Source: Blastocatellia bacterium (GTDB lineage Bacteria > Acidobacteriota > Blastocatellia > UBA7656). Taken from it: a stretch of 64,000 nt of DNA. The position numbers and the translations under genes were made by a program. This document shows, one piece after another, positions 52,343-61,861 of the stretch; the stretch's first letter is position 1; every line of letters starts with the position of its first letter. The notes below the pieces were generated by a model. The model saw nothing but the letters and a program-made list of their open reading frames with translations, was not told the origin of the DNA and searched no databases. Where the stretch lies: contig CAVXWP010000001.1 of the NCBI GenBank assembly GCA_963765495.1, positions 416,001 to 480,000 of the forward strand, read 5' to 3'.

Positions 52343-54364
52343 ATGAGCAAGACACTTTCACACTATAATCTGGAAGAAGAGTTGGGTCGCGGCGGGATGG
52401 GGCGCGTCTATAAAGCCTATGACACGACGCTCAACCGCATGGTGGTTCTCAAACTTCTTGCGCCCGATCTTCTGACCGATGCGGACTCGCGCAAGCGGTT
52501 TCTCAGAGAGGCGCGTCTCGCCTCGGCGCTTGATCATCCGAACATCTGCACTATATACGAGATCGCCGAAGCCGATAATCAGTACTTCATAACCATGCAG
52601 TACGTGCCGGGCAAGACGCTCAAGAAAGTGATAGGCACAAAGCCGCTTCCGCTCGACAGCCTGCTATCGATCTCGCTGCAAGTGGCCGACGGGCTGGCCG
52701 CGGCCCACGCAAAAGGAATAGTTCACCGCGATATAAAATCGAGCAATATCATAATTACCCCTCGAGGTCAGGCCAAAGTGCTCGATTTCGGTCTGGCCAA
52801 GCTGCTTTCCGATAAAGGGCGAGCGGCGGAAGCAAGAGAGCAGGTGGAGGAGTTGACAAGGCTTGGCGCGCCGCTCGGCACGCCTTCATACATGTCGCCC
52901 GAACAGGCGCGCGGCGACAGGTCGGATCATCGCAGCGACATCTATTCGCTCGGCGTGGTGATATACGAGATGGCGGGCGGGCGACTGCCTTTCAAAAGAG
53001 AATCCAATGTCGAAACCATGCACGCCGTTATGCACGAAGCCTACAAGCCGCTTCTCGAGATCAACGACAAACTGCCGCCGGACCTGGCCAGGATCGTAGA
53101 CCACGCGATGGCCAAAAAGCCCGGCGACCGCTATCAGGCAATGCAGAAGATGCTCGGAGACCTGCAGGACGTGAATCGCGCGGTACGGCTTGGGGCCAGT
53201 GGAGTGCCTGACGGAATAACGGTTCCCTTCGTTTCTCCGAAGCGGCAGACTTTTTTCGGCTCGCTTAAACAGTTCATCGGTCGCCTCTTTTCCGGCAAGC
53301 CTGCGACAGAAATGAGCCCCTCGCAGATGCCGTCTCCCAGGCGACCGTCGAGCGCCGCGCAGGAATTCTCTATAGTCAGCGGCACGCAAAAAGCGCTGGC
53401 CGTGCTGCCTTTTCGCAATCTGAGTGGCGACCCGCAGGCCGATTTTTACGGGCTTACGCTGGCCGATGGCCTTATCACTGAGCTTGCAAGAGCGAGGGCC
53501 GTCACCGTCATGCCTTTGAGTTACGTTACAAAATATCAGAACCAGTCCATTGATCCCGCGCAGGTGCGTACGGAGATGAACGTGGATGTGATTCTGATGG
53601 GAAATTTCCTGAAGGCGGGCGAACGACTTCGCGTGACCGCTCAACTGATAGATGCATCGGGCGGCGGTATCATCTGGAGCGAAAAGATAGACGCCGACGC
53701 CGAAGATGTGCTCGCGATTCAAGATCGCATATCACAGCAGATTATGAAGGGTCTGTCTGGCGGGCAGGTAGCCGTAGACCCAACCATTTTGCTTAAGGAC
53801 GAGAATGAAGAAGTCCGTCTGGATGCGATTCGCACGCTGAAGTTTTCGCACGACCCGCGCGCGCTTTCCGTCCTTGTCGAAGCTCTCAGGGACGCGAGCC
53901 TGAAGGTCAAAGCCGAAGCCGTACAGGCCATAGTCAAACTGGGAGAGCAGGCAACAGGCCCCGTCATCGGCATGCTCAACGATTCCATGGATGAAGGCGA
54001 TTATCTGACCGCGCGTTTTGCCGCCAAGGCGCTCGGCCTTATCGGCGATAAAAGCATATCGGCGGTGCTCGTTGAATTGCTCAGGGGAGATGATAAATTT
54101 GTGGCCTGCGAGGCAGCGCTCGCGCTCGGAAGACTTGAAGAGACTAAAGCGGTTTCCGATCTGATCGAGTTGTTGGATGACGAAAATGGGAATATGCGTT
54201 TTGCGGCGGCCGAAGCCCTGGGCCAGATATGCGACCCGGCTGCGCGCAGTGCGCTGCAAAAGCGACTGGGCGACGAAGACGAGGGCGTTCGGGCCAAAGC
54301 TCGATGGGCACTGAGCCGGTTGAAAAAAGCCAGGGTTCAGGCCCTCGCCGGGTCCGCCCTTTAA
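52343..54364 (+). CDS. Hanks-type Ser/Thr kinase with TolB-like domain and HEAT repeats
   Basis: GRGGMG, HRDIKSSN, DFGLAK, GTPSYMSPEQ; LAVLPFRNLS...; C-terminal HEAT repeats VRLDAI/AALALG/AAEALG/VRAKARWAL. Confidence 0.92.
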   Translation: MSKTLSHYNLEEELGRGGMGRVYKAYDTTLNRMVVLKLLAPDLLTDADSRKRFLREARLASALDHPNICTIYEIAEADNQYFITMQYVPGKTLKKVIGTKPLPLDSLLSISLQVADGLAAAHAKGIVHRDIKSSNIIITPRGQAKVLDFGLAKLLSDKGRAAEAREQVEELTRLGAPLGTPSYMSPEQARGDRSDHRSDIYSLGVVIYEMAGGRLPFKRESNVETMHAVMHEAYKPLLEINDKLPPDLARIVDHAMAKKPGDRYQAMQKMLGDLQDVNRAVRLGASGVPDGITVPFVSPKRQTFFGSLKQFIGRLFSGKPATEMSPSQMPSPRRPSSAAQEFSIVSGTQKALAVLPFRNLSGDPQADFYGLTLADGLITELARARAVTVMPLSYVTKYQNQSIDPAQVRTEMNVDVILMGNFLKAGERLRVTAQLIDASGGGIIWSEKIDADAEDVLAIQDRISQQIMKGLSGGQVAVDPTILLKDENEEVRLDAIRTLKFSHDPRALSVLVEALRDASLKVKAEAVQAIVKLGEQATGPVIGMLNDSMDEGDYLTARFAAKALGLIGDKSISAVLVELLRGDDKFVACEAALALGRLEETKAVSDLIELLDDENGNMRFAAAEALGQICDPAARSALQKRLGDEDEGVRAKARWALSRLKKARVQALAGSAL

Positions 54365-54409: not shown

Positions 54410-55375
54410 ATGCCGGATCTAAAAAAGCTATATGTTGGGCTGGATGTTGGGCGCACCATCCGAGGGGCGCTTGTCGATGAAGAGGGTCACATACTAAAAC
54501 GATGTCAAATAGTAACCGAGGTGAGCAACCCGCAGGTTTTTATTGATCAGCTTGTAGATGTTATCAACGGGCTGCGCGCCTCTGTAGAAACCGAAGGCAA
54601 GGTCTCTGCCGTGGGCATAGGATGGGCGGGCATGGTGAACCAGAAAGCTCAACGAGTCGAGGTTATGCCGAACCTTGTGGATATGTCGTCTTTTGCTCTA
54701 CACGAGGAACTAGAAAAGGCCACAAAACTGCCTGTCGTATTCGATAATGATGCCAACGTAGCTGCCTACGGCGAATGGCGATGTGGCGCGGCCCGAGGGT
54801 CGAGCGATGTCTTTTATGTCACTATGGGCACAGGCATAGGCGCGGCCTTGATTCTGGGGGGGCAACTCCAGAGAGGCACGCGCGGTTTTGCGGGCGAATT
54901 CGGACACTTCAAAATAGAGATGGATGGATTGGAATGCGCCTGCGGCTCAACGGGCTGTCTTGAGACGCTGGCCTCCGGCCCCAACATCGTACGGAGGGTG
55001 CGGGAACAGCTCTTCAGCGATCCTTCATATTCGATCTCGCATCTTGCTAAAGACATGGAAGGCACGCTGGTATGCGAACGGGTTTTTCAGGCCGCGAGCG
55101 AAGAAGATGAACTTGCGCGGTTAGTCCTCGAAGAGACCGGAAAGATACTGGGCACCGCTATAGCGAGCGTGATCAATCTGTTGAATGTGGAAGCAGTGGT
55201 TCTGGGCGGCGGCGTGATGGCCGAGGGAAAGTTGTTGCTTGAGCCTGTCAGAGAAGAGACTAAGAAACGTACCATGGCCCCCGCCTTTGAAAGCTGTCGT
55301 ATAATTGCTGCCGAACTGGGACAGGACGCGGGAATAATCGGCGCTGCGCTGCTGGCTTGTGATCTGCTGCAATGA
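54410..55375 (+). CDS. ROK family sugar kinase
   Basis: DNDAN.AA.GE, GTGIG, GEFGH, CACGSTGCLE, AGIIGAA; no N-terminal HTH. Confidence 0.9.
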   Translation: MPDLKKLYVGLDVGRTIRGALVDEEGHILKRCQIVTEVSNPQVFIDQLVDVINGLRASVETEGKVSAVGIGWAGMVNQKAQRVEVMPNLVDMSSFALHEELEKATKLPVVFDNDANVAAYGEWRCGAARGSSDVFYVTMGTGIGAALILGGQLQRGTRGFAGEFGHFKIEMDGLECACGSTGCLETLASGPNIVRRVREQLFSDPSYSISHLAKDMEGTLVCERVFQAASEEDELARLVLEETGKILGTAIASVINLLNVEAVVLGGGVMAEGKLLLEPVREETKKRTMAPAFESCRIIAAELGQDAGIIGAALLACDLLQ

Positions 55376-55497
55376 TGCGCGATCCGTGATCCGTGACCGG
55401 AGAATCGGGTTTTTGGCAGGATTTACAAGATTTACAATACTTGGGACATAGAGTTAAAGAATCCCGTTAATCCGGTTAAAGATTTTTTCACGGATCA
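55373..55497. repeat. Nested repeat: family A heptamer arms enclosing a family D nonamer element
   Basis: TGATGCGCGATCCGTGATCCGTGA...[CAGGATTTACAAGATTTAC...AATCCCGTTAATCCGGTT]...TCACGGATCA. Confidence 0.55.
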
Positions 55498-55512
55498 ACT
55501 TCATTCGTTGTT

Positions 55513-55941
55513 TTATTCTTTTCGCCTTATCTCCCTCAGACTGGCCTTATATTGATTGAAGGCGAACAGGTATTTATAAGTCCAGCTAAAGGCAATTTCG
55601 ACGGCGCGACGTGCTGTCTGGTTGGCCGCTATTATTCCTGCCGGCCCTTGCCGGAGAGCAGTCAGGATCGATCCCATTATTGATTGATAGCGTTTGTTGC
55701 TGCTCTCTTTTGCCACCTTCTCAATCAATTGCAAATCCGACTCGTTAAGTTCGCCTCCAATTGGCGAGCCGGTTACATCGCTTACAACCTGCATCCTTCC
55801 CGCCATTACATTTATCTGGTTGACAGGCAATTTTTCAATGAATTTACGGATTTCGGTTTCAGGGACCAGATAACCCTCGGAATAAGTAACAAATTCGGAT
55901 TTTGTTTTTGTGCCAGTATCCCTTTTTTCTGGTATACTCAT
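55513..55941 (-). CDS. Hypothetical 142-aa protein downstream of the TPR-RAPP gene
   Basis: Open frame MSIPEKRDTG...EIRRKE with GGAG 7 nt before ATG 55941; no family recognised. Confidence 0.6.
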   Translation of the reverse strand: MSIPEKRDTGTKTKSEFVTYSEGYLVPETEIRKFIEKLPVNQINVMAGRMQVVSDVTGSPIGGELNESDLQLIEKVAKESSNKRYQSIMGSILTALRQGPAGIIAANQTARRAVEIAFSWTYKYLFAFNQYKASLREIRRKE

Positions 55942-56005
55942 AGCCGTTCTCCGGTATGCAAGCGTGTTTTTGGACAAACCAATCCCTTTACACGGCTGTG
56001 TGCAG

Positions 56006-56047
56006 TTGAGCCCGGGTGGGTCATCGGGCAACGATGGCCCACCTCAA
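56006..56047 (-). promoter_or_regulatory. Stem-loop in the leader between the TPR gene and the downstream ORF
   Basis: mRNA GGUGGGCCAUCG-UUGCC-CGAUGACCCACC (11 of 12 pairs). Its 5' arm is also complementary to the RAPP codons. Confidence 0.55.
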
Positions 56048-56065
56048 GATATAGGTTTTGAAGGT

Positions 56066-57118
56066 TTACCGGTTTTTAATCCAAAGACATGAAGGTGGGG
56101 CGCGAGGTTGGATACTCTGACGCATCATTTCAAGAATGCGCCGGTTTACCTGATCGTCGGCGATTGCCACACACGGGGCAATCGTAAAAACTGATATTTG
56201 AAGATTAAATTTATCGCAGGCAGGCCAGGCAAAAACCAGGACCCTCACCGGCTTCAGGCTGGGCAGAGTTTGAGGCTGTGGCGAGGGAGCGATTTCAGGC
56301 GCGCGATTGAGAGCGATAAAGGAAGAAGAAGCGGCTTGCTGTTTAGCTGAGATCTCCTCACGAGTTTCAGCCCATTCGGGATAAGCAGCGGCAAAGGGAG
56401 ACCGCAGAGCGATTTCGCTAGCGGCCTGCGCTTCTGTGATGCGGCCGACTTCTGCAAGATCGACCGCAATCGCGTTATGGTAAACATAGAAATATAAAGG
56501 ATGCTGCTTGCTGACCAGCTGCATAAGAGGCGAAAGGTTTTCGAGATAGGCTATTGCTCCAAGATGATCGCCCTCTATGCTCTGGTGAAGCACTATATCC
56601 AAATGGGCCATCAGTATAGGAAGCCAATTTTGCCCATTTTTGGTTGATGCGATCTTTAGTGCTTCGAGATAACACCGCGATGACTCATCTACCTGACCTT
56701 GTTCGTAGTGTATTACTCCCAGCGATTGAATCGCTCGCGCCCTGTAGGCCAACGGCCCATTCTCTGCAACTTTTTCAAGCAGGAGTCGCGCTTCGCTTCT
56801 TTGCCCGCTCCGCTTGACGGCAAGAGCGTGATAGTACAAACCCGTCTGCCGCGCCGCTTCAATCGGCAGATTCATCAGCACCTGGCTTGCATTTTCAAGC
56901 GTTTCTAAATCACGCAGGCTGTAAGCATGTTCAGCGAATCGGGTAAATTTATCAGCAGTTTCATTGAATAATTGATGTGAGTTAAAAGTGTGAGCCAGTC
57001 GGCTCAAAATGGCGTGTTGAAACAATCCACCCCGGCCAGCCAAGCTTTCCAGGCCGGCAAATCCCAATTTGGAGGAAGTATTCGTGAGAAAACGACTTGT
57101 ATTTGCGGTTTTTTGCAT
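56066..57118 (-). CDS. TPR-repeat protein with Pro-rich linker and C-terminal RAPP motif
   Basis: TPR-like helices (YYHALAVKRSG..SEARLLLE; RAIQSLGVIHYEQGQVDES..CYLEAL; NAIAVDLAEVGRITEA), linker APEIAPSPQPQTLP, and end IQPRAPPSCLWIKNR. The exact start codon is uncertain. Confidence 0.75.
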   Translation of the reverse strand: MQKTANTSRFLTNTSSKLGFAGLESLAGRGGLFQHAILSRLAHTFNSHQLFNETADKFTRFAEHAYSLRDLETLENASQVLMNLPIEAARQTGLYYHALAVKRSGQRSEARLLLEKVAENGPLAYRARAIQSLGVIHYEQGQVDESSRCYLEALKIASTKNGQNWLPILMAHLDIVLHQSIEGDHLGAIAYLENLSPLMQLVSKQHPLYFYVYHNAIAVDLAEVGRITEAQAASEIALRSPFAAAYPEWAETREEISAKQQAASSSFIALNRAPEIAPSPQPQTLPSLKPVRVLVFAWPACDKFNLQISVFTIAPCVAIADDQVNRRILEMMRQSIQPRAPPSCLWIKNR

Positions 57119-57413
57119 CCTTGCTCTTCCGCTTCTGTTTTCGCCTTCTCAATTCGATAAACAGAACATCTCGACTCCATTCACCACTGTTGCATTAGCA
57201 GGCCACACCCTTGTTGGCGGCTACTGCGACTGTGGAACTATCGGTTGCATTTGTGGTCCAGGTGAAAATTCTACAAACATCAAAACGACTGATCTTTCCG
57301 ACACAAATTCGGATGCGAGGTCCAGCAATCAAACCAACACCGCTGGGGCCGATCTGGCATCAGGGATGCTGGCATTTGCTTCCGCTCTTCTCCTGTGGTT
57401 TAGAATGCGATAA
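57084..57413 (+). CDS. Small secreted Cys-rich protein with C-terminal membrane anchor
   Basis: GGAGG 8 nt before GTG 57084. Contains MRKR plus a hydrophobic stretch, VALA/GH, CDCGTIGCIC, an S/T/N-rich linker, then a TM helix and WFRMR tail. Confidence 0.75.
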   Translation: MRKRLVFAVFCILALPLLFSPSQFDKQNISTPFTTVALAGHTLVGGYCDCGTIGCICGPGENSTNIKTTDLSDTNSDARSSNQTNTAGADLASGMLAFASALLLWFRMR

Positions 57414-57850
57414 AACTCTCAGCATCTCAAGTCCGAATTGAATCAACACCGTTAGATTCGCCGCCCCGACAACTTTGGCGGCTTAGGATGAGTGTGGCCT
57501 CGTGACCTGCGCATTGTATCATAAAAATTCCAGGATGAAACGAATAATCTAGCTTACATATACAAAATATTGAAGACATTTGAATGAATGAATTGCATCG
57601 TAAATATTCGGTCATATTGCCATTTGCCGGACAGATTGGATGCCGAAATGGAGACTTTTGGGCACTCCACCTGACTGCGCGGCAAATCCAGGGACAAGGC
57701 ATATTCTTGCCTGAATCAAGACGGTCGTCCGGGGGGCAATTCGGTGAGCCACTATAAAATGGATTCATTGCGACTGCCCCTATACTCTTGAAAAAGCTCT
57801 GCATTTGCGGTATAAGCAGTGGTTGCAAATCCCAGATCAAGTTCAGTTAT

Positions 57851-59668
57851 ATGCTTATGCGCAAAATTCAGCTTTTAATCATTACCCTCGCAATTTGCCT
57901 ACCCTCCCTCACAATGCAAATACCCGTCTCTGCTTCAAAGCATAAGCGAAACCCTTCCGCTTATGCTCCCGGAGAAGTAATAGTCAAGCTCAAGCAAGGA
58001 ATCGATTCCTTCACCTTGGCCGATAAGGAGCGGCACAATCGAGCGCTCGCCCGCTCGATTGGAGAGACAAACGGGAGGCTGCGGGATGAAGATATTGTGC
58101 CGATGGCCGTCCGTCCGAATCAAGATGCGAATCGAGATGCGAATCGAGATGCGAATCTTGATCGGATAGACGAGATCATATCGCGGCGCGGGCTGGATCG
58201 CACCTTTGTACTGCATTTTGATCGGAACGCCGATATTGATTCAATAATCGAGCGGCTTCGCGCCGATGACCGCGTAGAGTACGCAACGCCGAATTACCGT
58301 GTAACTCCGGGCTCGCTGCGACCGGATGACCCCGCCTTTATAAGGCAATGGGCGCTTTTGAACCTCGGTGCATTCGATAATCGAATCACAAAGGCTCAGG
58401 CTGATATCAAGGCGCTTGAGGCGTGGGACATAACTACGGGTAACCCCGATCTTATAGTGGCCATTAGCGACTCGGGCGTCGACATAGATCATCCTGATCT
58501 CGCGCCGAACATTTATACCAATCCCAAAGAAATCCCCGGCAACGGAATAGATGACGACAATAATGGATATATTGATGACGTGCATGGCGCAAATGTGGTG
58601 ACTCGCGACGGCGATGTCAGGGATGTATATGGCCACGGGACGTTCATGGCCGGCATAATTGCCGCGCGTATGAATAATAATGTCGGCATAAGCGGCGTTG
58701 CGCAGATAAAGATATTGCCGGTCAATTTTTTCACTACAGAGGATGACGGATTCCCTGTGGCGACTATGGCTGATGCGGCGCGCTCGCTGCTCTATTCGAT
58801 AGCCGCCGGAGCCTCGATCATCAATGCAAGCTGGAGCTCGGAACTCTACACGGCAGGCGAAGAAGCGGTGCCGCCGGAAGACGCTCAGGCGCTAAAGGAT
58901 GCGGTCCTTGCAACCAATGATGCGGGAGTGCTGCTTGTGTGCATAGCAGGCAATAAAGGTTACGATAACGACAAGAGCCTGCTTTACCCGGGCGCTTACA
59001 AGCTGCCTAATCAAATAGTTGTGGCCGCCACAGACTACAACGACAAGATATGGGCAGACTACTTCGGAAACTTCCTTATAACAGGCTTCGGCCAGACGAG
59101 CGTGCATCTGGCTGCGCCCGGTGTTTCGATACTCACAACCTCGGCACGCGGATCGTGTCTGCTCTGTTCGCTTTCGGATGACCCTGACGACTGGTACGCG
59201 CTCGTAGACGGAACATCTGCCTCCGCCGCATTCGTAACGGGTGTCGCGGCGCTGGTAAAATCGAAGTACCCCGAAGACCTCGCACCCGTCATAAAGAGCC
59301 GGATACTCGGCGGTGTTGATCAACTCGACACTCTCTATGACCGCGAAGGACACCCCTACGTAGCAACCGCAGGCCGTCTGAACGCATTCGGCGCGCTGAT
59401 GTTTCAGCCCGCAATAACGCCGCCCGTGCTTACCCGCGTGAAGTACAAAAAGGGATCAGGAAAGCTGCTCTTATATGGAGAGGCTCTACAGGAAGGCGTC
59501 GTTGCCGTTGTAGGAAACATCGTCTATCCGATAAAGCCTAAGAGCCCTGACCTGTCGGTCGTGCTGGCTCGCGTGCCAAACGATAAATTTCCTGTGGGGG
59601 TCCCGGTTTCGATCACTCTGCGCAATCCTGACGGCGGAATCAGCCAGATCGTGACCTTTACGCGCTGA
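57851..59668 (+). CDS. Secreted S8 subtilase with C-terminal Ig-like domain
   Basis: Signal peptide, PGEVIVK prodomain, SDSGVD..HPDL, GIDDDNNGYIDD, GHGT, AGN and DGTSASA. Confidence 0.9.
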   Translation: MLMRKIQLLIITLAICLPSLTMQIPVSASKHKRNPSAYAPGEVIVKLKQGIDSFTLADKERHNRALARSIGETNGRLRDEDIVPMAVRPNQDANRDANRDANLDRIDEIISRRGLDRTFVLHFDRNADIDSIIERLRADDRVEYATPNYRVTPGSLRPDDPAFIRQWALLNLGAFDNRITKAQADIKALEAWDITTGNPDLIVAISDSGVDIDHPDLAPNIYTNPKEIPGNGIDDDNNGYIDDVHGANVVTRDGDVRDVYGHGTFMAGIIAARMNNNVGISGVAQIKILPVNFFTTEDDGFPVATMADAARSLLYSIAAGASIINASWSSELYTAGEEAVPPEDAQALKDAVLATNDAGVLLVCIAGNKGYDNDKSLLYPGAYKLPNQIVVAATDYNDKIWADYFGNFLITGFGQTSVHLAAPGVSILTTSARGSCLLCSLSDDPDDWYALVDGTSASAAFVTGVAALVKSKYPEDLAPVIKSRILGGVDQLDTLYDREGHPYVATAGRLNAFGALMFQPAITPPVLTRVKYKKGSGKLLLYGEALQEGVVAVVGNIVYPIKPKSPDLSVVLARVPNDKFPVGVPVSITLRNPDGGISQIVTFTR

Positions 59669-59785: not shown

Positions 59786-61861
59786 ATGACCGATATCAGA
59801 CAGACACTTTCACTGGAGCGTAAGCTGAGAATGTACGAGGCTCGTGAGGCGATTTTGAGCCGCGTCGGGTCGGAAACTTATTCCGTTATTGATCTGGACC
59901 ACTTCCTGCAAGGGACCGTAACCGAAGTCGGAAAGATGATGGAGGTGGACCGCTGCAACGTCATGACGCTTACGGCCGAAGGCCGCCTTCGCATTACCCA
60001 CGAATATCGCGCGGAGGCCGACGATATTCCTCTGCCTTCCTCAATCGATCTTGAAGTGCCGTTTGATTTGAACCGCCTGCAGGAAAACATGGACATCTAT
60101 AATCCGCAGGTGGTCGAAGACACCTCTTCGGGCGAATTGCCTCACGTAATACATATGCTGGCCGAGCAACTCGGAAGCAAGTCAATACTGATCGTGCCGA
60201 TCATGTCAAACTGGGAGTTGCTCGGCATGATAGGTCTGCATCACTGCCGCCGCAATTATCACTGGAACGAAGACGAAATAGACTTTACGCGCAGTCTGGC
60301 GCAGCAGGTAGCCATAGGCTATCGCTACACTCATATCTACAGCGAAAAGGAGAAAGAGGCGCGGATAAACAAGGCGCTTCTCGAAATCGCAAACGACATA
60401 AATACGGGGTCGGATTCTTCCGAGCTTACGGCGCGCATTCTCGACCGCTCTCTGGATTTGCTCCGGCTCCAGGCGGCCTGTCTTGCCATACTCGACGCAA
60501 ACAGCAGCGACATACACTTCACAAACCTGCGTACGGCCCCGGGCGTCAGCACCCAGATACTCAAGCAGCCGTCGCTTAAGATTCCCATCCAGGTGATGCT
60601 GCCAAAGACCATCGAGCACGGGCAGATGCTCAGGATACTCAGCCCGGACCAGAACGATTACACGCGGGTCTTTTTGACGGAGGTCGTCGCTTCGGGCGCG
60701 GCCATAATCGCCCCGATAATAATAGACGACCGTGTTTTCGGCGCGCTCATACTGCTTTGGGAACAGCCCAAAACCCATTTCACACGCGACGAAACGGCGC
60801 TCGCCCTGGGGATAGCCGACCAGCTTGCCATAGCGCTTTCAAAGGCCAGTCTGTCTGCCGAGGTTCTGAGGCTGCGGCGCGAGCTTGAACACGTCCACAC
60901 AGGCCACGATGCCGGTTTTATCGGCAAAAGCGATAACGTAGTCCGATGCGTGGAGATGGCGCTTTACGTGGCCGATAGTTCGACAACCGTCCTGCTTCAG
61001 GGTGAGTCGGGAACCGGCAAAGAATTGCTGGCCGATTTTATTCAGTCGCGCTCCTCGCGCGCCGATAAGCCTTACATACGAATCAACTGCGGGGCCATCC
61101 CTGAAAACCTGCTGGAAAGCGAACTGTTCGGACACGAGAAGGGCGCCTTCACCGATGCGCGCAATCGTAGGATAGGCAAGTTCGAAGAGGCAAACAACGG
61201 CACCCTCTTTCTAGATGAAGTCGGAGAGATGACATTGTCGGCGCAGGTCCGGCTGCTTCGCGTGCTGCAAAACGGAGAGATAGCCCGCGTGGGCGGCAAC
61301 GAGATTATTAAAACCGATGTTCGCGTGATAGCCGCTTCCAATATCAACCTCGAACGCGCGGTCAGCGAAGGCCGCTTCCGCCGCGATCTCTTCTATCGCC
61401 TCAACGTCTACCCGATTTCGCTTCCGCCGCTCAGGGAGCGGCGCGAAGATATACCGCTACTTGCGCTTCATTTTCTTGAAATCTATAAGAAACGCTCCAA
61501 CAAAAACATCACCGGCCTCACTGAAAAAGTGCTCGCCCGATTGCGCCGCTATGATTGGCCCGGCAATGTGCGCGAACTTGAGAACGCCATCGAGCGCGCC
61601 GTGATAATCGCTCAGGGGCAGCTTATTACCGTAGACGATCTGCCCGATGCAGTGCGCGGTGCCGAGAGCGAAGCCGACGCCCCTCGCACGCTCGAAGTGG
61701 AGATCGGAAACTCGATAAGCGAGATTGAAAAGCGCGTGATAATGGAGACACTCAGTCACACTCGCGGCGACAAATCGCGCGCCGCTCAGATACTGGGCAT
61801 AGGACGAAAAACGCTCTATCGCAAACTTCAACAATACGATCAGGACACCAATCGAAAATAA
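59786..61861 (+). CDS. Sigma-54-dependent enhancer-binding protein (2xGAF-AAA+-Fis HTH)
   Basis: GESGTGKE, ESELFGHEKGAFTDA, LFLDEVGE, FRRDLFYRLNV, WPGNVRELEN, AAQILGIGRKTLYRKL. Confidence 0.94.
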   Translation: MTDIRQTLSLERKLRMYEAREAILSRVGSETYSVIDLDHFLQGTVTEVGKMMEVDRCNVMTLTAEGRLRITHEYRAEADDIPLPSSIDLEVPFDLNRLQENMDIYNPQVVEDTSSGELPHVIHMLAEQLGSKSILIVPIMSNWELLGMIGLHHCRRNYHWNEDEIDFTRSLAQQVAIGYRYTHIYSEKEKEARINKALLEIANDINTGSDSSELTARILDRSLDLLRLQAACLAILDANSSDIHFTNLRTAPGVSTQILKQPSLKIPIQVMLPKTIEHGQMLRILSPDQNDYTRVFLTEVVASGAAIIAPIIIDDRVFGALILLWEQPKTHFTRDETALALGIADQLAIALSKASLSAEVLRLRRELEHVHTGHDAGFIGKSDNVVRCVEMALYVADSSTTVLLQGESGTGKELLADFIQSRSSRADKPYIRINCGAIPENLLESELFGHEKGAFTDARNRRIGKFEEANNGTLFLDEVGEMTLSAQVRLLRVLQNGEIARVGGNEIIKTDVRVIAASNINLERAVSEGRFRRDLFYRLNVYPISLPPLRERREDIPLLALHFLEIYKKRSNKNITGLTEKVLARLRRYDWPGNVRELENAIERAVIIAQGQLITVDDLPDAVRGAESEADAPRTLEVEIGNSISEIEKRVIMETLSHTRGDKSRAAQILGIGRKTLYRKLQQYDQDTNRK

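Follow-up and report, generated by a model that had tools for sequence, protein, structure and literature searches.

The locus considered here lies in a stretch of 64,000 nucleotides (nt), hereafter the window, from a Blastocatellia bacterium (UBA7656; assembly GCA_963765495.1, contig CAVXWP010000001.1, positions 416,001-480,000 of the forward strand). At window positions 55513-57413, between a ROK gene (PF00480, 244.9 bits) and a gene for a subtilase of family S8 (PF00082, 147.7 bits), three genes occupy an islet of low guanine and cytosine content (0.44-0.50 across about 55300-57700, versus 0.54-0.60 in the flanks). All three open reading frames (ORFs), like the AT-richer composition, are found as placed by the first-pass annotation, a reading of the sequence alone. 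The central gene (56066..57118, minus strand) encodes a protein of 350 amino acids (aa) with tetratricopeptide repeats (TPRs), assigned from its ORF, a Pfam TPR_2 match, an AlphaFold model and homologues. Near its end, codons CGC GCC CCA CCT (56093..56104, minus strand) specify residues 339-342, Arg-Ala-Pro-Pro (RAPP), a candidate ribosome arrest site followed, as first annotated, by eight codons and the stop. On the same strand come a spacer (56050..56092) that includes here these last eight codons and the stop (56066-56068) and is G-poor in the family, a leader RNA with hairpins P1 and P2 (55933..56049), recognized by covariation and by its match to covariance model R1 (78.8 bits, E 1.2e-15), and a gene of 142 aa with an ATG start (55513..55941), supported by its ORF, its paralogues and homologues and a six-helix model. 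The Shine-Dalgarno sequence (SD) of this downstream gene, GGAGA (55948-55952, minus strand), lies at the leader end, 6 nt before the ATG. Head to head with the TPR gene, a third gene (57084..57413, plus strand) starts with GTG and encodes an exported Cys-rich protein of 109 aa with a signal-peptide-like N-terminus, a Cys core, a linker and a hydrophobic C-terminus.

The C-terminal motif of the TPR protein is a family trait. This copy ends in ...QPRAPPSCLWIKNR and the stop, and 102 of 112 homologues found by protein search carry, within their last 30 residues, RAPP (89), RGPP (7) or RSPP (6). The RAPP singled out in the first-pass annotation is thus conserved near the C-terminus, with an invariant Arg. 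Among the 10 homologues devoid of the motif, two with RAPT and one with LAPP look decayed. Exactly three residues separate motif and stop in 76 of the 102 proteins, and the Arg is preceded by Pro in 80 and by Ser in 17. In an alignment of 50 of the 112 homologues, R339 is invariant and P341 and P342 are at least 90% conserved. The picture is the same at the DNA level, where 114 loci were assembled, 94 of them unique and 88 unique with a complete TPR ORF; 40 of these 88 are of the RxPP type (33 RAPP, 4 RSPP and 3 RGPP) and 48 are not. Arg is present in 40/40 RxPP loci, encoded by CGC, CGA, CGG or AGA, position 2 of the motif is Ala, Gly or Ser only, and the first Pro is specified by all four of its codons. 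Selection on the motif therefore operates at the amino acid level. Synonymous choice is biased in addition, with CGC in 34/40 loci (background 29%), GCG in 20/33 (25%) and CCT in 20/40 (22%), a preference for CGC-GCG-CCU that fits an RNA-level role. In a crude ORF set of this genome, RAPP occurs at most 25 aa from a C-terminus in eight cases, four of them from the TPR family.

Arrest peptides of the RAPP and RGPP types comprise ApdA, ApdP, ApcA and seven Streptomyces lividans proteins (Sakiyama 2021; Morici 2024; Fujiwara 2024, 2025). Mutagenesis of ApdA and ApdP has shown that the Arg is irreplaceable, that changing Ala to Gly is wholly compatible with arrest or indeed strengthens it, and that changing Ala to Ser is partly permissive; at the stall, the P site holds the third motif codon and the A site the fourth (PMC12992588). 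The pattern in the TPR family, with its invariant Arg and an Ala, Gly or Ser behind it, matches this published arrest-permissive set. According to the same source, RAPP and RGPP rank with the four-residue words that bacterial proteomes avoid most and are concentrated near the C-termini of small proteins, and HGPP forms part of arrest sequences obtained by random-library screening (PMC12992588). Cassette and known arrest peptides also share a short, helix-prone conserved segment just ahead of the motif and a co-directional downstream gene.

Most loci have 159-170 nt between the Arg codon and the downstream AUG, with the stop 3, 6, 8 or 12 codons past RAPP. Since this distance is nearly constant despite the shifting stop, a fixed RNA element was suspected. 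Such an element, the leader RNA, begins 52-58 nt (about 54) past the Arg codon in nearly all covariance-model matches, behind a spacer that is fixed in length and poorly conserved in sequence (positions R+24 to R+56 in 40 loci: A 40, T 25, C 24 and G 11%). The loop of hairpin P2 carries a conserved AGGAUUKGUGUG motif, and the leader ends with the SD and the invariant AUGAGUAUA start of the downstream gene. In a MAFFT alignment of 29 loci, which leaves aside the distant variant L006 that would not align, 84.9% of the P1 and P2 cells pair, versus 32-44% when the partners are slid; changes on both sides are seen in 19 of 24 pairs, and the observed values are reached by none of 500 shuffles. RNAalifold on its own draws P1 and a short local hairpin only (17 of 21 sequences); P2 was drawn by hand and then tested. 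The downstream start is invariant in nucleotides (AUG-ARU-AUA, the rare ATA codon included) in all 29 aligned loci, whichever protein follows, and no pairing partner for it was found among them. A pseudoknot between spacer and P2 loop was considered, and no consistent complementarity was seen by eye; an alternative hairpin joining GUGUG of the P2 loop to CACGC was rejected, being not kept in L046 and L088 on inspection by eye. The analysis thus shows that motif, RNA structure, spacing and gene order are conserved.

A covariance model built from the 29-locus alignment matches this genome at 55933-56049 and at one other place, the cassette on contig C8. In the GTDB family of this genome it matches 30 of 53 genomes, with 83 matches among those listed. 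All RxPP loci searched are matched except L006; among the 48 non-RxPP loci a single one, L118, is matched. In this locus (L118:3844-3962), the only one of its type with the leader RNA, the TPR protein ends in HGPPFRT before the stop. In a search of 55300-57700 against Rfam the leader has no match; at E<=1 nothing is hit but PAGEV, at chance level and in another part of the stretch (15.4 bits, gathering threshold 61.1 bits).

The downstream ORF and its distance of 124 nt from the TPR stop stand as first annotated. The gene is not an orphan, as had been stated, because paralogues and homologues exist; all homologues are annotated 'hypothetical'. Its product has a disordered basic N-terminal tail of ∼25 residues (MSIPEKRDTGTKTK...) and then a helical body, modelled by AlphaFold as a confident six-helix bundle (predicted local distance difference test score, pLDDT, 86.4). 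It matches no Pfam or NCBIfam family, ESM Atlas gives no usable match, and Foldseek finds none for the model at E<=0.001; its best-placed weak matches, to helical bundles of Csm2 (E 0.1-0.6, TM score 0.42-0.48), are taken as non-specific. A gene beginning with M-(S/T/N)-I (MSI-type) and encoding a basic tail lies downstream, at the distance from the Arg codon given above, in 30 of 40 RxPP loci, versus none of 48 non-RxPP loci. The body is that of the helical family of this copy in most loci. An AraC-type helix-turn-helix (HTH) domain, HTH_18, takes its place in L016, L023 and L036 (77-97 bits), L061 and L088 resemble these three by eye, and HTH_17 is found in L017 (32.3 bits). The N-terminal tail is conserved, disordered and common to proteins with helical, AraC and HTH_17 bodies. 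The downstream gene thus varies between cassettes, a point raised in the first-pass annotation: the body differs while start and leader are kept. No Sec or YidC component occurs as the downstream gene; a helical protein, AraC HTH_18 or HTH_17 is found instead. The gene is best described as encoding a small putative regulator. In several RxPP loci (L070/L032, L015, L063, L045/L018, L051/L020, L027 and L096) the leader is intact and the downstream gene decayed, either to a short ORF or by change of ATG to GAG or AAG, which suggests a turnover of cassettes.

In the TPR protein, Pfam detects a single TPR_2 match, exactly at the cut-off (27 bits, aa 128-157), and no DUF2946, only TPR families being found; NCBIfam adds nothing to Pfam for the proteins of the cassette. 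The AlphaFold model, computed from the alignment of 50 of the 112 homologues, has a mean pLDDT of 78.8 and shows a disordered segment (aa 2-28), a very confident alpha-solenoid (∼35-265), a disordered Pro/Ala-rich linker (∼270-321) and a short low-confidence helix (323-335) just before RAPP. Foldseek relates the solenoid to generic TPR superhelices (OGT, consensus TPRs, kinesin light chain and phage phi3T Rap) with E values of ∼1e-3 to 1e-4. No signal peptide or transmembrane (TM) segment is apparent in the 112 homologues, where the median 19-residue Kyte-Doolittle maximum is 1.26 for the whole protein and 0.76 (highest 1.48) for the first 60 aa. Neither the Pfam scan nor the model reveals an HTH; the HTH proteins are encoded by separate genes.

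TPR matches occur in 52 of the 53 genomes of the GTDB family of this genome (Blastocatellia, soil Acidobacteria), with up to 24 per genome, whereas an even sample of the phylum (401 genomes, five candidates scored per genome) gives two matches, this genome and one other of the same family. Named carriers among the 112 homologues are Acidobacteriota or Blastocatellia metagenome bins. The cassette is multi-copy, copy number being another matter raised at first annotation: the TPR gene is found at five places in this genome, three with a clear copy of the peptide gene and three with the downstream gene, and up to 24 matches occur in one genome. Non-RxPP TPR proteins are longer (∼370-410 aa) and end in an acidic helical tail, e.g. 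DETDDETIDRILEAVEEI. That they arose as a fusion of TPR and downstream proteins was rejected (BLASTP E 0.68, hhalign probability 6.7%). A convergent XRE-type HTH gene (HTH_3, 24.6 bits) accompanies 25 non-RxPP loci among 60 examined, and one RxPP locus also. Non-RxPP loci with this gene (L004, i.e. G000:C16, and 25 others among L044-L123) have neither leader RNA nor an MSI-type gene. In a tree of the TPR domain, built with 57 of the 88 loci (those whose match starts after residue 12 or that have no YPEW motif were dropped), the RxPP/non-RxPP split is a single branch with support 92/74. Because this tree needs only one change, the RxPP type is one deep subfamily whose linked features arose once. 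The weight of the co-occurrence evidence rests on the retention of these features within a deep clade. No earlier description of the cassette family was found in a literature search.

We consider it probable, with moderate confidence, that the TPR gene ends in a RAPP-type arrest sequence and that the pause controls translation of the downstream gene through the leader RNA. The locus then reads as a new architecture within RAPP-type arrest regulators, in which a cytosolic TPR domain replaces the secretion signal. Ribosome stalling, its effect on the downstream gene and a sensing role of the TPR domain are inferences. By analogy with ApdA, ApdP and CruR, the ribosome would stall on RAPP at the end of the TPR gene, its P site occupied by the first Pro codon and its A site by the second. 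It would then cover RAPP and the next few codons, which may otherwise pair with the SD/AUG region downstream; this route, similar to that of SecM, MifM and CutF, is the most likely one. By that time the TPR domain should be fully out of the ribosome on a flexible linker of ∼50 residues, and this cytosolic domain is a candidate sensor that would set the duration of the stall. The divergent, overlapping gene for the exported Cys-rich protein is read as part of the same module.

Known arrest systems keep the downstream SD hidden in a stem, which melts when a ribosome stalls (PMC10987492; bioRxiv 10.1101/2025.02.05.636593). Folding energies in 30 loci are consistent with such a role for the RAPP region. 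The mean energy of pairing between its footprint and the SD/AUG region is -16.0 kcal/mol, compared with -11.8 kcal/mol for an upstream coding control. When the footprint is masked, with Pro341 in the P site, the energy needed to open the SD drops by 2 kcal/mol or more in 13 of 30 loci; with a control mask shifted by 32 nt, such a drop is seen in 2 of 30. In the minimum-energy folds of L028, L016, L048 and L036, a long-range helix closes the leader and joins RAPP, or the three codons that follow it, to the SD/AUG region.

Several observations weigh against arrest control by this route. The footprint effect stays below 2 kcal/mol in 17 of the 30 loci, and with the footprint masked the SD window is still sequestered (mean 9.3 kcal/mol). 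In this copy the SD sits in a small local hairpin of the minimum-energy fold; its opening energy falls from 7.9 to 6.7 kcal/mol only, and the duplex amounts to -9.8 kcal/mol. Cognate pairing hardly exceeds non-cognate pairing (-16.0 vs -15.3, permutation p about 0.06), and codons for Pro-Pro are inherently complementary to any SD. SD unmasking is thus predicted for part of the family only and is weak in this copy. The counts that link RxPP, leader RNA and downstream gene are not independent, since they trace back to a single evolutionary event. Leader copies with no upstream RxPP codons exist at L049:4394-4512, L086:4880-4997 and L046:791-906, and the RNA is therefore able to occur where the arrest motif is absent; the extra copy in L086 precedes a second MSI-type gene, itself behind an AraC-type gene. 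The usual source of pulling force for release of arrest is missing, because the TPR proteins, in all 112 homologues, have no signal peptide or TM segment. Finally, the RAPP motif is described as insufficient on its own and as requiring a suitable upstream context (PMC12992588).

Part of this evidence would be accommodated if the leader RNA were the real regulator of the MSI-type gene, by binding a protein, an RNA or a ligand, with the RAPP pause secondary; the pause could, for example, keep the finished TPR domain near the emerging N-terminal tail of the downstream protein for co-translational assembly. P1, P2 and the P2 loop motif are conserved far beyond the needs of SD masking, AUGARUAUA is invariant with its rare ATA codon, and the disordered N-terminal tail is common to downstream proteins of differing bodies. 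The three leader copies lacking an upstream RxPP and the SD that remains sequestered in silico under a masked footprint point the same way. Nevertheless, the interval between Arg codon and RNA is fixed at 52-58 nt and the RNA accompanies RxPP genes almost perfectly, both of which argue for joint action, and the leader has no Rfam match; we regard a leader acting as the main regulator as unlikely. The same spacing bears on another explanation, whereby PRAPP would serve the protein once made, as a docking site at the C-terminus, a ligand for proline recognition or a tag for degradation, and the downstream gene would be a mere operon partner. The extreme C-terminus behind a disordered linker is a frequent place for short linear motifs, and the residue that precedes the Arg is conserved too (Pro 80/102, Ser 17/102). 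Yet the allowed substitutions are those of the arrest-permissive set from mutagenesis, and a docking motif of RxPP sequence would be costly, RxPP being reported as strongly avoided in proteomes (PMC12992588). Moreover, the RNA spacing is fixed in nucleotides independently of the stop position and a synonymous codon bias is unexpected for a protein-level motif, which makes a role in the finished protein distinctly improbable.

Arrest could also be real and act on transcription. In tnaC, stall-based control of transcription relies on the ribosome keeping Rho off the RNA, and a stalled ribosome might likewise block Rho loading on the G-poor spacer and avert premature termination. The spacer composition (G only 11%, with A 40, T 25 and C 24 over R+24 to R+56 in 40 loci), its fixed length with poorly conserved sequence, and the weakness of SD unmasking in over half of the loci are in line with this view. 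The G-poor stretch is however short (∼35-45 nt) and A-rich rather than C-rich, and we give this mechanism very little credence.

The gene for the exported Cys-rich protein belongs to the family as a whole. The divergent ORF (57069..57413, plus strand) would encode 114 aa from a TTG and 109 aa from the GTG at 57084; the GTG is the better start, because GGAGGAA lies 6 nt upstream and because start and SD occupy the same position in 52 of 62 related loci. The protein begins with RKR, ∼15 hydrophobic residues and SPS-Q, similar to a signal peptide, and continues with a core PF.TVALAGHT..G.YCDCGT.GCICGPGE that contains the Cys motif CDCGTIGCIC, a low-complexity linker and a hydrophobic C-terminus ending in RMR. 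The family consensus is MRKRL-hydrophobic-...PFATVALAGHT..G.WC.CG.PGCICDPGE...DFGSGALMLALAFFLWTRLRA followed by the stop. Among 62 related peptide ORFs, CxC..CxC is found in 46, AG[HR] in 60 and a basic-x-basic end of the tail in 54. The peptide matches no Pfam or NCBIfam family, and none of the curated CTERM models is significant when 47 peptides are searched at E<=10 (JDVT-CTERM 2, best E 0.012; PFE-CTERM 1; MYXO-CTERM 1). The layout of its C-terminus, a motif, a helix and basic residues, is similar to that of sortase-type C-terminal signals, and the protein looks exported and membrane-anchored.

TPR and peptide genes, treated as a pair in the first-pass annotation, do co-occur, in 32 of 34 loci by tblastn and, by ORF, in 62 of 67 unique loci with the TPR start on the contig, where a divergent ORF with a hydrophobic N-terminus is present (two of the 62, L002 and L027, are decayed or spurious). 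Since the peptide gene accompanies both subtypes, the pair is the family core, and the arrest module was added in one branch. The genes are indeed head to head, as first described, and do not merely face each other: their coding sequences overlap by 35 nt (57084..57118, both strands), as deduced from the ORF calls and from conservation in the family. The SD of the peptide gene, GGAGGAA (57071..57077, plus strand), falls within TPR codons 14-16 on the opposite strand, where an alignment of 59 loci shows conservation of at least 80% for its complement TTCCTCC. In the family the SD and start codon of the peptide gene lie within TPR codons 12-16 and the TPR start lies within the Cys-Ile-Leu codons of the peptide gene; the 35-nt overlap, with a start codon and an SD-like motif at the same position, is kept in 52 of 62 loci. 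Because the genes overlap head to head at their starts, each ribosome-binding site is antisense to the other mRNA, and this complementarity suggests mutual antisense control of the peptide and TPR genes.

RRNPP signalling, exemplified by Rap/Phr, Rgg/SHP and PlcR/PapR, relies on receptors that bind a re-imported mature peptide encoded by a neighbouring gene. To our knowledge, all RRNPP receptors other than Rap have an N-terminal HTH fused to the TPRs. The cassette resembles these systems in that its cytosolic TPR gene adjoins the gene of a small exported protein, in its many paralogues per genome and in the presence of a DNA-binding partner nearby (the convergent XRE HTH in the non-RAPP subtype; AraC, HTH_17 or the helical protein in the RAPP subtype). 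It differs from them in that no HTH is fused to the TPRs, the fold match is no better than that of generic TPR proteins, and the host belongs to the Acidobacteriota. The exported protein, with its 109 aa, Cys-rich core and C-terminal anchor or sorting-like signal, is likewise not a short linear pro-peptide. The kinship with RRNPP signalling evoked in the first-pass annotation therefore holds for the gene layout and no further: the peptide looks exported or anchored, the TPR protein has no export signal, and the likeness to Rap is generic, the phage phi3T Rap match (TM score 0.42-0.43, E about 1e-3) being equalled by generic TPR proteins. The further suggestions made there, of a TPR domain that binds the peptide or a metal and of a stall relieved by folding or by a ligand, are supported by none of the present results. 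No text joining 'RRNPP' and 'Acidobacteri' was found in the literature search.

It is nonetheless tempting to consider a receptor-gated cytosolic arrest peptide, in which the TPR domain would bind a partner during the RAPP stall and thereby set stall duration and regulator output. Candidate partners are the cytoplasmic C-terminal tail of the exported protein (...W-T-R-L-R-A-COOH) or a processed fragment of it, or the N-terminal tail of the downstream regulator. We hold this extension of the arrest reading to be doubtful. If true, it would be the first arrest peptide in which sensing relies on a folded ligand-binding domain outside the tunnel, where others use a secretion signal or a small molecule bound inside it; it would reveal in Acidobacteria a peptide-signalling family with up to two dozen paralogues per genome, and the mutually antisense ribosome-binding sites would supply a built-in toggle.

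Compared with known arrest systems, the cassette combines familiar and unfamiliar features. With RAPP arrest peptides it shares R-(A/G/S)-P-P near the C-terminus, the invariant Arg and the same tolerated substitutions. Unlike these small proteins, it has a soluble TPR solenoid of ∼230 aa with no export signal, and it adds two elements: a covarying two-hairpin leader whose distance is fixed, and a divergent gene that overlaps the TPR gene and encodes an exported peptide. Of the seven S. lividans arrest proteins, all but one are described with a signal peptide or TM segments, and the downstream genes of this set extend beyond protein localization to include ECF (extracytoplasmic function) sigma factor genes (PMC12992588). 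The 2025 survey was confined to proteins of <300 aa with a 'hypothetical' annotation whose downstream gene was annotated (PMC12992588). The TPR family falls outside the survey because all three filters fail for a 'TPR protein' of ∼340 aa with a hypothetical downstream gene. In the logic proposed for SecM-secA, MifM-yidC2 and VemP-secDF2, a stalled ribosome likewise opens mRNA structure over the downstream SD (PMC10987492); unlike these systems, the cassette has no downstream Sec or YidC gene and no N-terminal targeting signal, and SD masking is predicted for only part of the family. In CutF/CruR, a C-terminal proline-rich or RAPP stall melts a stem-loop over the downstream ribosome-binding site (bioRxiv 10.1101/2025.02.05.636593; PMC12992588). 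Cys motifs are present in both cases; in CutF/CruR they share one exported protein with the stall motif, whereas in the cassette they belong to a separate divergent exported protein and the stalling protein would be cytosolic.

The RAPP arrest peptides known so far are small proteins, secreted or membrane-bound, in which the stall ends when export pulls on the chain or when a metal binds in the course of export. The latest survey asks where a releasing force could arise in systems unrelated to protein localization (PMC12992588). The cassette offers a sharply defined test case, with a TPR domain of ∼230 residues, a flexible linker, a 20-residue arrest module, a leader RNA and a regulator gene. 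If the stall is real, arrest-based control would extend to cytosolic receptor-like proteins and to transcription regulators, and the cassette would provide a candidate signalling family for Acidobacteria, a group in which regulation has hardly been studied. Both the leader RNA and the ribosome-binding sites that overlap head to head are novel by themselves.

Other copies in this genome illustrate the diversity of the family. In L003 (G000:C8:214119-217835) the TPR gene is split into two overlapping frames by an in-frame TAA, and the leader (104.4 bits) and downstream gene are intact. In L002 (G000:C9:144135-148166) the peptide gene is decayed (71 aa, with no Cys motif), the downstream gene starts with MSM, and the leader contains an insertion of ∼80 nt, its model match spanning 199 nt (42.3 bits). 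In the distant fifth copy, L006 (G000:C9:649538-653218), the TPR protein ends in RPARAPPLF before the stop and the leader model has no match; a Cys motif is absent from the small exported protein encoded divergently, and MSIVDK opens the downstream protein of 152 aa. Around the cassette of the window, no flanking terminal repeats suggestive of a mobile element were found. Its minus strand has no sigma-70-like consensus promoter or intrinsic terminator, including between the TPR and downstream genes, and PADLOC gives no match for any of the three proteins. Further out lie genes for a Ser/Thr protein kinase that carries HEAT repeats at its C-terminus and for a sigma-54 activator of GAF-GAF type (52343-54364 and 59786-61861); since related cassettes occur in unrelated neighbourhoods, no link between these genes and the cassette is seen. 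In the subtilase gene, a 12-nt unit is repeated three times in tandem (58116-58162) and encodes DANR-DANR-DANL in the propeptide region.

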